A model generated the notes under the pieces. The model ran no database searches. It saw nothing but the letters and a program-made list of their open reading frames with translations, and had not been told where the DNA came from. Of a stretch of DNA of 64,000 nt, positions 19,351 to 23,170 are shown piece by piece; positions within the stretch are counted from its first letter, which is position 1; each line of letters begins with the position of its first letter. The position numbers and the translations under genes are program-made. Source of the DNA: Myxococcota bacterium (GTDB lineage Bacteria > Myxococcota_A > UBA796 > UBA2385). The stretch is taken from the NCBI GenBank assembly GCA_044344255.1, contig JBIJDH010000029.1, positions 13,414-77,413 of the forward strand, written 5' to 3'.

Positions 19351-20181
19351 ATGGGCACGAACACCATCACCCCGGGGACGCTGGCCTGGACTGTGCTCCA
19401 GCGCCTCGTGGAAGACCCGGGCGCCCTGACCGGGGCAGACCTCGCCCTCGATCTCGCCGCCGAGCTCGGAGAGGCGCCGCCCCCCTTGCCGCCGCTCCGC
19501 TGCGCCGCCGGCGCGCCGCCGACACGGTGGGCCCGCTACGGGCTGCGGCCGGTCTTCTCCACCTTCGCAGACCTCACCCGTCGCCGCGAGCAGCGAGCCG
19601 CGCACGCGGAGCTCGTCACCCTCCACCGCCGGCGGGCCCGGGCGGCGATGGCCCGCCTCGTCGACGCCCTCGAGGCCGAGGGCCTCGTCGAGCCGCGCCG
19701 CGCCGAGATCTCGCTCTCCCCCTCCTTCGCCGCCCAGGTCGAAGCCCGCGGGCTCCTCCACGCCATCGCCTTCTCTCGGATGAGCGCGCCGCTCTTCGTC
19801 GACCGCCCCGCCGCGGCCAGCGGCTGGGAGGGCGGCCAGGTCTCTCCGGAGGGCGAGGTCACCCTCTCCGATGAGGCCGACGAGGTCGCGATCGACGAGG
19901 AGGCGCCCCCCGAAGACGCGGCGCTCACGCAGGGCGAGGCCGCGCCAGCGCCCGCCGGGCCCGCCGCCGCGCCGGTCCGCCGTCAGACCGCAGACACGCT
20001 CCGCCGCGCCCTCCTCGAGGCCCTCCAGCGGGGCCCCTGCTCCCGCGAGGCGTTGCTCGGTCCGTCGCCCACCCGCGCCGGCCTGCGCGCGCTCGCCGAC
20101 CTCGCTGAACAGGGCATGATCAGCCTGCCCGCCTGTCGTTGGCCCTCCGAGGCGGGCCGCCAGCTCATCCTCGTCGGCTGA
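19351..20181 (+). CDS. Hypothetical protein, possible winged-helix-like segments
   Basis: ATG after GAGGG; segments VLQRLVEDPGALTGADLALDL and LLEALQRGPCSREALL...LADLAEQGMI resemble wHTH elements. Confidence 0.6.
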   Translation: MGTNTITPGTLAWTVLQRLVEDPGALTGADLALDLAAELGEAPPPLPPLRCAAGAPPTRWARYGLRPVFSTFADLTRRREQRAAHAELVTLHRRRARAAMARLVDALEAEGLVEPRRAEISLSPSFAAQVEARGLLHAIAFSRMSAPLFVDRPAAASGWEGGQVSPEGEVTLSDEADEVAIDEEAPPEDAALTQGEAAPAPAGPAAAPVRRQTADTLRRALLEALQRGPCSREALLGPSPTRAGLRALADLAEQGMISLPACRWPSEAGRQLILVG

Positions 20182-20454
20182 GGCCGCGCCCCCGCAGGCG
20201 CGCGCGGCGCCGAGGGCGGTAAACGCGAACGGCGAACGCCTACGACCCGTGCACCGCTCGCCGAACGAGCGCGCACCGGACCCGGATGAGCGCGCATCGC
20301 CGCCGCCGCCCGGGGGACGGCGACCACGTGGACCGATCGGTGGCAGACAGAATCGAAATTACCTTTGTACAACGACAACCTTCCCCCATCGGCGGGCACA
20401 CCCGCCCTCCCTCGCTCGGCCGACCCCGCTCGCCCGCCGGGGGCTCCGCCGGGC

Positions 20455-20470
20455 TGGCACGGGGCTTGCT
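20455..20470 (+). promoter_or_regulatory. Sigma-54 (-24/-12) promoter
   Basis: TGGCACGGGGCTTGCT matches TGGCACG-N4-TTGCW exactly; intergenic, 83 nt upstream of the small ORF; AT-rich tract at 20346-20380 upstream. Confidence 0.85.
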
Positions 20471-20553
20471 TTGGTCTGTGTCACATCGGCGCCGCGACGC
20501 AAGAAGCGACGGAGGCCGATGGACAGACCGCCCGACCCCGAACGGAGCTCACC

Positions 20554-20619
20554 ATGAAGACGCGCACCAACTTGAAGTCCGGTTTCAACCCCCAGCCCGA
20601 CCCCCCAGGTCGCCACTGA
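20554..20619 (+). CDS. 21-aa peptide MKTRTNLKSGFNPQPDPPGRH (candidate precursor/secreted microprotein)
   Basis: GGAG RBS 6 nt before ATG 20554, TGA at 20617-20619, sigma-54 promoter upstream, stem-loop downstream. Confidence 0.7.
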   Translation: MKTRTNLKSGFNPQPDPPGRH

Positions 20620-20652
20620 GCCTTTGAACTCAGCCGATTGACTTGTGACACC

Positions 20653-20698
20653 GAGCAGCCCCCGACACACCGCGATCCGGCGTGTCGGGGGCGCGCTC
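20653..20698 (+). terminator. GC-rich stem-loop after the microprotein gene (terminator or mRNA-stabilising element)
   Basis: GCCCCCGACAC...GTGTCGGGGGC 11-bp perfect inverted repeat with flanking GAGC/GCTC; only a weak U tract follows. Confidence 0.55.
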
Positions 20699-20762
20699 AT
20701 TTGGGGCCGTTTGGGGCGCGCACCCGGCCGGACGCCGCGGTGAGGCCGCGCTACGAAGAGGG

Positions 20763-21566
20763 ATGTCCACCGCGACCGATCGGCCCCAGCCTCCTCCCGC
20801 CGCGGATGGCCCAGAACCCGGCGCCCCCGCCCTCGAGCTCCTCCACCTTACGAAGCGCTTCGGCGAGAAGGTGGCGGTGGACAACCTCAACCTCACCGTC
20901 CCCCAGGGCGCCTTCCTCGGGCTCCTCGGCCGCAACGGCGCGGGCAAGTCCACGACCCTCAAGATGGCGACCGGGCTCATCGACCCCACCGCGGGCTCCG
21001 TGCGGGTGCTGGGCCACGATCTGCGGGGGGCGCCGATCGCCGCGCGCCGCCTCATGGGCGTCGTCCCCGAAGACATGGCCCTGCTCGAGCTGCTCACCGG
21101 CCGGCAGTACCTCCGCTTCGTCGGTCGGATGTATGGCCTCGACGACGGGACGGCTGACCGTCGGGGCGCTGAGCTCTGCGAGACCCTCGACCTCCGGCCC
21201 GGCCCTCGCACCCTGGTGGCCGACTACAGCTTCGGGATGAAGAAGAAGCTCGCCTTCTCCGCCGCGCTCCTCCACGGGCCCCGCATCCTCTTCCTCGACG
21301 AGCCCTTCGAGGGCATCGACGCCGTCACGAACCGCACGATCAAGGACATCCTGCTCGCCCTGCGGGACCGCGGCGTGACGCTCATCCTCACCAGCCACAT
21401 CCTCGAGGTGGTCGAGCGGCTCTGCCCCGACATCGCCATCATCGACGAAGGCCGGCTCCTCGGGCACGGCCCGCTGGGGGCGCTCCTCGACGGCGGGGGC
21501 TCGCTCGAGCGCCGCTTCCTCGAGCTCGTCGGCGGCGCCCCCCGGAGCGCCCCCGCGTGGCTCTGA
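20763..21566 (+). CDS. ABC exporter ATP-binding subunit
   Basis: Walker A GRNGAGKST, signature YSFGMKKKL, Walker B LFLDEPFEGID, H-loop TSH. Confidence 0.95.
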   Translation: MSTATDRPQPPPAADGPEPGAPALELLHLTKRFGEKVAVDNLNLTVPQGAFLGLLGRNGAGKSTTLKMATGLIDPTAGSVRVLGHDLRGAPIAARRLMGVVPEDMALLELLTGRQYLRFVGRMYGLDDGTADRRGAELCETLDLRPGPRTLVADYSFGMKKKLAFSAALLHGPRILFLDEPFEGIDAVTNRTIKDILLALRDRGVTLILTSHILEVVERLCPDIAIIDEGRLLGHGPLGALLDGGGSLERRFLELVGGAPRSAPAWL

Positions 21567-23170
21567 ACGACCCGCCGCCGAGCGCCCTGCGCGCGGTCTG
21601 GCTCACCTTTCGGGCCCTCGCTGCTGCCCACCTCCTCGGGAGCTGGAACCGCCTCGGTCGACAGGCCGGGGTCGAGGGTCGGGCGGCGGTGGTCGCCCTC
21701 TACCTGCTCCTCGTGCTCTCCCTCGTCCTGCCCCTCCTCGCAGGCTTCGGCGCCCTCGGCTACCTGCTCGGTGAGACCCTCTCCGACGGGGGGCCGGGGC
21801 TCCCGCTTGGGGGTGCCCTGCTGACCCTCTTCCCCGTCGTGGCCGGCGGCTTCGGCGGCCTGTCGAGCGGCTCACGCCAGCTCCCCTGGGAGACGCTGCG
21901 GGGCTTCCCCGTCCGCCCGACCGTGCTCTTCGGCGCCGAGCTCTTCGCCGGGGGCGCGGAGGCCGTCACCCTGATCGAGCTCGCCGCCCAGGCCTCCCTG
22001 CTCCTCGGCGTGGCGGTCGCGGTCCCCCGCGCGGCCCCGCTGCTCCTCGTGCTCCTCACTTCGCACACCCTCTTGCTGCTCGCCTTTCAGCAGCTCATCG
22101 GCAGCCTCGCCGAGCGGATGGCCCGGCGTGTCCGCCTGCTGCTGCTCCTGCTCCCGCTCACCGCCGTCTCGATGCCGTGGTTGATCGAGCAGCTCCGCGC
22201 CGCCTGGGGTGACCGCGGGCCCGGCCCGGCCTGGTCGGCCCTCCAGCAGGCATCGAGCCTGCTGCCCGCCTCGCGGCTCCTCGCCGCCGCCGCTGACACC
22301 CTCCAGGGGCGGGCCGATCCGACCGACCTCCTGCTCGCGGCGCTCGCCGTGGCCGGCTCGGCGCTGGGTGCCGTGGCGTTGGCCTACTCCTTCGTCTCTC
22401 GAGAGCGGGCCCTCGACCTCGACCTCGGCGGTGGCCACGAGCGCCTCTGGACCTTCCGAAGCCCGGCCCTCGGGATCGCCCGGCTCCAGTGGCGGGCCCT
22501 CGCGAGCAGCCTCCCCGGCCGCTTCGGCCTGATGGTGCCGCTCTTCACGGTGGTCCTCGTGCGCGGGCCGCTGGCCACCTTCCTGCCGAGCTCCGGCTGG
22601 GCGGTGCCCCTCGCCTTCGCCTACGCGGCGATGGCCGGCGCCAACCTGCTCTTCAACCAGTTCGGACTCGACCGTCATGGCGTGAAGGTGCTGCTGCTCC
22701 TGCCCATCGAGCCCGAGGCCCTCCTCCGCGGCAAGCTGCTCGGCTTCGCCGCCTGGCAGGCCCTCCAGGCGCTGCTCCTCGTCCTGCTGCTCTCCCTCGG
22801 GGGGCGAGGAACGCCGACCTCCCTGCTCACCGGCGTCCTCCTCTACGCCTGCATCTTCCTCGTGCTCGCCCTGGTGGGCCAGCGGGTGAGCCTGTGGCTG
22901 CCCCGCCCGCTGAAGAAGAACGGCCTCCGGGCTGGCCAGCCGCCCTTCCTCCTCATGCTGCTCATCACGCTCTCCACCCTCGGCACGACCGGCGGCCTCT
23001 TCGGCCTCCTCCTCCTCCTCCGCCACTTCGTCGCCGGCTGGGCGCCGCTCGGGCTCGTCGTCGTGACGGGCGCCCTCACGCTCTGCCTCGGGCCCGCCCT
23101 CCGGTGGAACGCCCGGTACCTCGTCGAGAGCCGGGAGCGGCTGGTCGAGACCCTCGGCGCCTCGGGCTGA
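21557..23170 (+). CDS. ABC exporter permease (large, multi-TM)
   Basis: More than 10 hydrophobic segments; FNQFGLDRHGVKVLLLLPI motif; overlaps the ATPase stop. Confidence 0.82.
   Translation: MALNDPPPSALRAVWLTFRALAAAHLLGSWNRLGRQAGVEGRAAVVALYLLLVLSLVLPLLAGFGALGYLLGETLSDGGPGLPLGGALLTLFPVVAGGFGGLSSGSRQLPWETLRGFPVRPTVLFGAELFAGGAEAVTLIELAAQASLLLGVAVAVPRAAPLLLVLLTSHTLLLLAFQQLIGSLAERMARRVRLLLLLLPLTAVSMPWLIEQLRAAWGDRGPGPAWSALQQASSLLPASRLLAAAADTLQGRADPTDLLLAALAVAGSALGAVALAYSFVSRERALDLDLGGGHERLWTFRSPALGIARLQWRALASSLPGRFGLMVPLFTVVLVRGPLATFLPSSGWAVPLAFAYAAMAGANLLFNQFGLDRHGVKVLLLLPIEPEALLRGKLLGFAAWQALQALLLVLLLSLGGRGTPTSLLTGVLLYACIFLVLALVGQRVSLWLPRPLKKNGLRAGQPPFLLMLLITLSTLGTTGGLFGLLLLLRHFVAGWAPLGLVVVTGALTLCLGPALRWNARYLVESRERLVETLGASG

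Follow-up and report, generated by a model that had tools for sequence, protein, structure and literature searches.

A 21-codon peptide gene behind a sigma-54 promoter box in a Myxococcota bacterium and its likely export in trans by a remote C39-peptidase cassette

Two described export systems come closest to the gene reported here, and we compare it with them as they appear in the accessible passages of the papers cited throughout. In the NHLP/N11P system, Nif11-type precursors go with an export triad of TIGR03794, TIGR03796 and TIGR03797 (PMC2887384). In the double-glycine systems, served by peptidase-containing ATP-binding cassette (ABC) transporters (PCATs), residues Ala55 and Ile59 of PCAT1 contact the leader at Leu(-7) and Leu(-12) (PMC6959990); LahT150 fails on leaders without hydrophobic residues at -4, -7 and -12, and other PCAT domains may widen the toolbox (PMC10885120). 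For myxobacterial microviridins, the leader-cleaving enzyme is stated to be unknown (PMC8939145). Here we describe a 21-codon gene in a 64,000-nt stretch of a Myxococcota genome (assembly GCA_044344255.1, contig JBIJDH010000029.1, positions 13,414 to 77,413; the window), which had been singled out by an earlier reading made from the letters alone (the sequence-only reading). The best overall explanation, to which we assign a probability of about 0.7, is that a sigma-54-dependent peptide is processed and exported in trans by a remote C39-peptidase cassette, directed by a ten-residue leader that serves as a tag. G, C and L numbers are our handles for genomes, contigs and loci; G000 is the genome of the window, which lies on its contig C5.

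The open reading frame (ORF) at 20554-20619 has 21 codons and encodes MKTRTNLKSGFNPQPDPPGRH, followed by a stop codon (Table 1). The sigma-54 box in front of it (TGGCAC-N5-TTGCT) is the sole match in the window, where 0.00 were expected from 100 shuffles; the whole genome (8.18 Mb, 71% GC) holds 42 exact boxes. The GC content of the AT-rich tract further upstream is 42.5%, where the genome has 71%; of 204,385 windows of 40 nt, 156 have at most 40% GC. The tract contains no IHF consensus at up to two mismatches. The hairpin behind the stop codon has a predicted energy of -37.5 kcal/mol (z = -2.78 for the region); it has no U-tail, and a terminator scan made no call there. Box, tract, GGAG ribosome-binding site (RBS), 66-nt ORF, hairpin and a downstream ABC pair, all named by the sequence-only reading, were found in the sequence, and its statement that no modifying enzyme or C39 peptidase adjoins the gene was borne out by a Pfam scan of the neighbours. 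The peptide has zero matches in Pfam, NCBIfam, PHROG and PDB, Rfam gives nothing credible for the locus (a single match, E 0.99), and the ORF holds the only NPQP-x-PP anywhere in the six frames of the genome. A literature search, with subscription papers mostly and supplements likewise outside its scope, returned no description of leader or core; the passages available of PMC8939145, PMC12848669, PMC13097080 and PMC7268733 do not describe the leader, and such leaders might stand unnamed in the tables of precursors in PMC8939145, PMC13097080 and PMC7268733.

Judged by its homologues, the window ORF is a member of a genuine, widely conserved gene family. A metagenome scan was anchored on [KR][AS]G-x-NPQP-x-PP, and the upstream leader residues K-T-x-[VIL], which were not part of the query, were also present at 70 of the 107 loci returned; the other 37 (longer proteins, other frames or variants) were dropped. 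Together with the window and three GTDB loci, these give 73 stand-alone ORFs and 47 distinct peptides, across which the core is conserved as [FLI]NPQP[DLE]PP with a spread of synonymous codons. Positions in the query or filter are conserved by construction, and start, RBS, early stop and promoter are independent of the query: Met stands at -10 in 42 of the 47 distinct homologues, with a stop soon after the core, an RBS-like word precedes 65 of the 73 ORFs, and 24 of 70 homologues have a sigma-54-like box in front of them, in 14 cases at exactly 43 nt, where random windows gave 142 of 2840. We count the ORF as a gene because of its protein-level conservation, the synonymous codon spread and the RBS placement, and the earlier proposal of a real, conserved precursor with a sigma-54 promoter is thereby supported. 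Among the matches listed from a GTDB pattern scan (at least 120, mostly chance) there are three clear homologous loci, which undercounts the range; the near-identical small ORFs lie in a Myxococcales record (three tandem copies), in Deltaproteobacteria (one) and in Acidobacteriia (one). Viral contigs gave 0 matches to the leader-end and core pattern, and across 22 same-family genomes the leader pattern was found in G000 only; an NPQP match in one of them, G126, was rejected as a chance frame.

The unit of leader and NPQP motif also occurs as one cassette of multi-leader precursors. A profile of 20 precursors matched 434 cluster representatives at E <=0.001, and the best 150 of these contain NPQP in 19 cases and an NHN-type repeat in 128. 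The multi-leader NHN-repeat precursors (L207:2261-2704 and similar) fall in large unnamed Acidobacteriota clusters of the ESM Atlas, where they are modelled as an ordered repeat fold.

Within G000 the KTxxK[AS]G leader heads about 11 further short ORFs, scattered over the genome and with unrelated cores. A filter for RBS, ATG and motif retains 16 ORFs, of which about five look like chance, against 1 in the reversed genome, and a sigma-54 box lies within 200 nt of 7 of the 16 against 0 of that 1. The neighbours of these paralogues vary: JmjC/cupin proteins (two loci), a 2OG-Fe oxygenase with an MvdD-type ATP-grasp ligase, a LanB, a sigma-54 activator, or nothing relevant. Several start with a PVFA/PFFAR-like stretch, one of them adjoining an MvdD-type ligase, and five that were scanned have no Pfam or NCBIfam match. 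At L006:2497-7462 (G000:C77, ~189107), a Cys-free tagged precursor lies between a full-length LanB and a Cys-rich protein of 450 aa, with no cyclase seen among the scanned neighbours. Homologues of the Cys-rich protein, a possible new maturase, flank tagged peptides in L188, L236 and L253 (LNPQPLPP genes) and in L305.

Clustering of the genes that neighbour the homologues brought up an HlyD, a C39-peptidase ABC and a second ABC, the last without a C39 match. Genes of this cassette lie beside 8 of the 27 peptide loci of at least 3 kb (4 of 39 DNA-similarity groups). The only orthologue of the cassette in G000 lies at C54:9613-15581, is 44-50% identical and has no precursor next to it, and each of the three other genomes with the window peptide also has the cassette, on other contigs (E 1e-63 to 1e-77). 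Across a phylum sample the cassette was found in 20 of 401 genomes and the strict leader pattern in 8, five of these cassette-positive; with G000 left out, the cassette is present in 4 of 7 leader-pattern genomes against 15 of 393 others (Fisher p = 1e-4, kin not being independent). At 7 of 19 cassette loci the stretch retrieved includes a tagged precursor, and a precursor was found in 11 of the 20 cassette genomes. Hits of the strict pattern fell in 5 of 15 cassette-positive genomes and in 7 of 40 cassette-negative ones, the latter large and picked by hand; when the ORFs were read, true small precursors numbered 3/15 against 0/40 (with one ambiguous case among the 40). A loose version of the leader pattern hit every one of 55 genomes and was discarded as useless. 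On this co-location and co-occurrence, from which the step in trans is drawn, the leader appears to track the cassette, and the window peptide is likely a PCAT substrate exported in trans. The split of leader and core at KSG/F and the idea that processing is encoded elsewhere, both put forward from the letters alone, are in keeping with a common leader and a remote C39 cassette.

Two precursors at cassette loci are microviridins, above the NF033738 cut-off, with the tag between the PFF leader and the core, and at one microviridin locus the operon runs precursor, ATP-grasp, HlyD, C39 ABC, ABC. Tagged microviridin clusters with the exporter are found at L338:13352-14620 and L342:7319-17369. This arrangement suggests that the exporter is a candidate leader peptidase of tagged microviridins.

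The peptidase domain of the cassette resembles PCAT1, LahT and ComA in fold, and its catalytic Gln10, Cys16, His96 and Asp112 are invariant in 26 C39 sequences. In a profile alignment, Ile59 of PCAT1 corresponds to a Glu kept in 25 of the 26, among further acidic residues, and position -7 of the leader is Arg in the window peptide and Lys or Arg in the homologues. An acidic residue at this place together with a basic -7 suggests a charge-swapped pocket, in which the Leu(-7)/Ile contact would be replaced by Lys(-7)/Glu and the cut would fall after Gly10. Position -4 is hydrophobic (Leu in the window peptide), the leader is too short to have a -12, and residues -2/-1, both fixed by the search pattern, read Ala-Gly in 43 of the 47 peptides and Ser-Gly in the other 4.

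With NHLP/N11P (PMC2887384) the system shares the set of an HlyD-like protein, a C39-peptidase ABC and a peptidase-less ABC, precursors far from the export genes, a single leader serving several classes of modification, and conservation that stops at the predicted cut site. The leader here, however, has 10 basic residues and ends in AG or SG, whereas that of NHLP/N11P has about 70-83 with an acidic motif before GG. The two C54 ABCs reach 179 and 98 bits where the cut-offs of TIGR03796 and TIGR03797 stand at 853 and 709, TIGR03794 is not among the HlyD matches at E 1e-8, and there is no NHase- or Nif11-like long leader, the precursor matching no NCBIfam model. With double-glycine substrates (ComC/ComA, CtA/PCAT1, LahA/LahT; PMC10885120, PMC6959990) it shares the C39 fold, intact catalytic residues, a hydrophobic -4 and Gly at -1, as well as, with the ComC pheromone, a short, putatively unmodified cargo (PMC10885120); a catalytically intact C39 ABC is linked to the leader, as for a cognate pair. 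It differs in having Lys or Arg at -7 and no -12 where they have a Leu(-7)/Leu(-12) knot, Glu in place of Ile59, two distinct ABC subunits rather than a homodimer, a Gram-negative host and sigma-54 control; GG, GA or GS at -2/-1 and the set of hydrophobics at -4, -7 and -12 are both absent. Microviridin and myxomiditide graspetides (PMC8939145, PMC12848669) share only the export tag, two microviridin precursors carrying a KTxVKAG-type junction; the window peptide and its neighbourhood have no PFF/PFFARFL leader, no TxKYPSD-type core and no ATP-grasp. Because of these leader features and the scores below the model cut-offs, we file the system, as far as sequence can place it, as a new variant beside NHLP/N11P and the double-glycine systems and not as a member of either.

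Upstream of the sigma-54 box lies a candidate activator element, a half-site followed by a near-palindrome. The exact 14-mer pattern occurs three times in the genome: in the window, in the promoter of the paralogue on C83, and 5' of a polyketide synthase (PKS) gene on C15. Half-site clusters number 15 genome-wide, and 5 of them have a sigma-54 box within 300 nt (background 298/20000); four of these head leader-peptide genes and one a halogenase-like gene, so labelled from its sequence. The motif was derived from the same promoters, which makes this enrichment partly circular and a lead, not a test. The same element stands before the PKS gene at G000:C15:140326-140400 and before the halogenase-like gene at C48:104277-104377, hinting at a regulon that may take in secondary metabolism. 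Both marks of a sigma-54 promoter, a -24/-12 consensus and an upstream activator site, are thus present by sequence, the activator site on partly circular grounds.

Taken together, we propose the following course. An enhancer-binding protein at the near-palindrome would probably switch on the sigma-54 promoter, giving a short monocistronic transcript that may end at the hairpin and encodes the 21-residue precursor. Its basic leader would be an export address common to about 12 scattered precursors, some beside modifying enzymes and some alone. The C54 cassette of HlyD, C39-peptidase ABC and peptidase-less ABC would bind this leader, a Lys(-7)-Glu pair probably taking the role that Leu(-7)-Ile has in known PCATs, cut after Ser-Gly and export FNPQPDPPGRH in trans; unmodified, these 11 residues have a monoisotopic mass of 1260.60 Da. 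The released Pro-rich peptide would then act as an extracellular signal, read by a membrane Ser/Thr kinase that acts on an FHA-type sigma-54 activator or an extracytoplasmic function (ECF) sigma factor. This last step is the weakest, and we put it a little short of even odds. It is suggested by the longer loci (n=27), where Ser/Thr kinases flank 8, FHA-type sigma-54 activators 7 and TIGR02999 ECF sigma factors 3, counts made without a base-rate control; one neighbouring kinase with a periplasmic-binding domain faces the peptide gene.

Several observations weigh against this course of events. Besides the uncontrolled neighbour counts, no kinase, FHA-type sigma-54 activator or ECF gene lies beside the window gene, and no outer-membrane partner of the exporter was identified. 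No cassette gene is near 19 of the 27 longer peptide loci, and no precursor was found in 9 of the 20 cassette-positive genomes. Conversely, 3 of the 8 leader-pattern genomes lack the cassette; we take them for chance matches, since the backwards control yielded 5 hits and each of the three is without an RBS. The leader ends in Ser-Gly or Ala-Gly and not in the canonical GG, GA or GS (PMC10885120), and lacks Leu(-7) and Leu(-12). Finally, the string [AG]G-[LFI]NPQP is also found in leaderless proteins, and the conserved unit may therefore span the proposed cut.

Where the motif occurs in other proteins bears on what the core might do. NPQP lipoproteins of the phylum sample (family f14) occur in 16 of 29 genomes, and in a secreted protein of the same sample the motif directly follows the predicted signal peptide. 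From this placement at the N-termini of lipoproteins and secreted proteins, the core resembles a motif exposed on the cell exterior for recognition. The lipoproteins at L030-L042 are small, tandem and of low complexity, with NPQP[EL]PP two residues after the lipobox Cys and tails rich in Gly, Ser, Asp and Ala; the two tested have no Pfam or NCBIfam family.

Some sibling cores resemble contractile-tube proteins. The core of L336 aligns with the N-terminus of a gp19-type tube protein with a score of 80 (0 of 1000 shuffles as good), its best match among 42,101 G000 ORFs being a gp19 gene; its tagged precursor (L336:6591-6749; G327:C20) is divergent from the exporter. Two more sibling cores reach z 10.4 and 7.2 among 622 tests, and one core has Hcp1 PA0085 as its only PDB match (E 0.63). 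Three consecutive tagged mini-genes (L305:1278-1620 and L303:1369-1563; G340:C162), only the third of which received a tool match (the Hcp1 one at E 0.63 just given), have cores that we take to resemble successive pieces of Hcp; no Hcp gene was found in G340. A paralogue on C51 of G000 shows a weak Hcp likeness (4/1000, chosen after the fact). PDB has no match for the L336 core and unrelated ones for the C51 paralogue, and Pfam and PHROG scans did not detect the tube or Hcp likeness of the sibling cores. For the window core, tube mimicry was rejected: 427 of 1000 shuffles are as good for Hcp and 123 of 1000 for the gp19-type protein, and it resembles neither. G000 itself has two pairs of gp19-type tube genes, in probable contractile injection loci (C52:243556-246450 and C83:39133-41742), and no Hcp was found in it. 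A speculative extension, which we consider unlikely, is that the tag marks the members of a secreted collection of short peptides mimicking motifs, sent out through one exporter to serve for alarm, as decoys or as poisons of assembly, in which sibling cores would copy segments of contractile-injection or phage tail tubes and, more weakly, Hcp, and the window core would copy [FL]NPQP[DEL]PP. Ser/Thr kinases bearing TPR domains would read the fragments and drive a sigma-54 regulon seemingly including the PKS and halogenase-like genes, and the collection would be a bacterial analogue of pattern-mimicking peptide signals.

Four other explanations of the locus were weighed. A modified product is somewhat unlikely: here the same cassette would export a peptide made on the ribosome and modified after translation (RiPP), an inhibitor or weapon and not a signal, whose core, rich in Pro, Asn and Asp, is hydroxylated or cross-linked by a remote JmjC or 2OG-Fe oxygenase or by the Cys-rich protein. 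Candidate enzymes do lie beside paralogues (JmjC, 2OG-Fe oxygenase with MvdD-type ATP-grasp, LanB) and a minority of homologues, one peptide locus having JmjC, peptide, TPR, HlyD and C39 ABC in a row, and the Cys-rich protein flanks the LNPQPLPP genes (one group, three loci) as well as the LanB paralogue in G000. JmjC, however, is found at 1 of the 27 longer loci, no enzyme family is common to most of them, and none adjoins the window gene. Lower still is our estimate that the 21-mer is never cut and acts at full length, either inside the cell or aggregated, with K-x-K-T-x-V-K-A-G as a beta-strand assembly unit and NPQP as its surface ligand. The Atlas model of a multi-repeat homologue, an ordered repeat fold with a mean pLDDT of 0.67 and a TM of 0.70 (by query) to a viral protein, and the many uncut contexts of the NPQP motif would fit this, but 20 residue types follow the motif over the 150 best profile matches, a high variability expected at a leader/core boundary, and in microviridin precursors the motif marks the junction of leader and core; it also goes together with an intact peptidase.

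It is improbable, slightly more so than the uncut form, that the peptide and the adjacent ABC-2 pair make up one unit in which the pair exports or protects, the hairpin setting the ratio of their transcripts. The genes lie on the same strand with 143 nt between the stop codon and the ATPase start, no sigma-70-type site lies between them, and the hairpin is without a U-tail. The adjacency is real, too: contigs from two further lake or freshwater runs (X14 and X16) span the peptide-ATPase junction, and the layout is therefore no assembly artefact. (The X16 strain shows differences in the 5' untranslated region and no listed ones in ORF or box, too few for inference; G000 is matched in lake and freshwater metagenomes in 20 rows from 17 studies, 4 rows possibly the source, with no RNA datasets listed among the matches, which has no bearing on expression.) Yet the permease was found at 0 of 70 peptide loci, many of them short (27 are at least 3 kb), and in 0 of 3 other peptide-bearing genomes. 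Of 153 other genomes of the order one has an orthologue of the permease, and of 400 in the phylum sample four do; orthologues of the ATPase, 65-75% identical, are without the peptide gene. All four orthologous ABC pairs have other genes upstream, in genomes without the peptide and without the C39 cassette (completeness is 88% for one genome, and for three the reading upstream of the ATPase covered about 700 nt). The functional link to the ABC pair drawn by the sequence-only reading is not supported by these surveys; that of ABC orthologues for an upstream peptide gene, which it had itself named as a refuting test, came out against it. Without the link, the hairpin need not set a peptide-to-transporter ratio, as had been suggested; hairpins also follow paralogous genes whatever lies downstream, an observation made without a control. 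The pair is best seen as a lineage-specific neighbour, which read-through from the sigma-54 promoter may reach. The permease has no Pfam or NCBIfam match, and a minority of its Atlas neighbours are of ABC_tran_2/12TM_1 type. A non-coding RNA made from the sigma-54 promoter, or an ORF present by chance, is very improbable: the transcript would be short and structured, but it belongs to no Rfam family, and the codon spread in 47 peptides, the RBS placement and the single ORF in the reversed genome against 16 tell against it.

Features of the locus are collected in Table 1. A 12-codon ORF at 20519-20557, with its stop overlapping the peptide ATG and a GGAGG only 3 nt from its start, is probably incidental. 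The upstream ORF of 276 aa (19351-20181) has weak helix-turn-helix-type matches only (MarR_2, E 0.01) and showed no link to the peptide across the homologous loci.

Table 1. Features of the peptide locus in window coordinates (a dot marks features without strand).
Feature	Position	Strand	Basis or remark
Candidate bacterial enhancer-binding protein site: half-site 20267-20277 and 14-bp near-palindrome 20285-20298	20267..20298	.	157 nt 5' of sigma-54 box
AT-rich tract between candidate activator site and promoter; possible bending site	20346..20385	.	
Sigma-54 (-24/-12) promoter box	20455..20470	+	consensus match
GGAG ribosome-binding site	20544..20547	+	6 nt 5' of ATG
Basic leader MKTRTNLKSG, 10 residues, KTxxK[AS]G family	20554..20583	+	predicted cut after Gly10
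Core FNPQPDPPGRH and stop codon	20584..20619	+	homologue conservation
GC-rich hairpin 3' of stop; putative end or stabiliser of short transcript	20653..20699	+	
ABC-2-type ATPase, neighbour, probably outside peptide system	20763..21566	+	PF00005; DrrA-like below cut-off
ABC permease, 537 aa, neighbour, probably outside peptide system	21557..23170	+	orthologue and co-occurrence survey

The in-trans reading points to a hidden class of genes of 15-25 codons in soil and freshwater Gram-negatives, skipped by gene callers and annotation. Their leader would be a minimal tag of 10 residues for export and cleavage, with a candidate new specificity rule (Lys-7 against Glu), and it proposes a leader cut site and a peptidase for myxobacterial microviridins. 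If the cores are indeed signals or tube mimics, they would represent a form of communication by peptides that is little known in these phyla.

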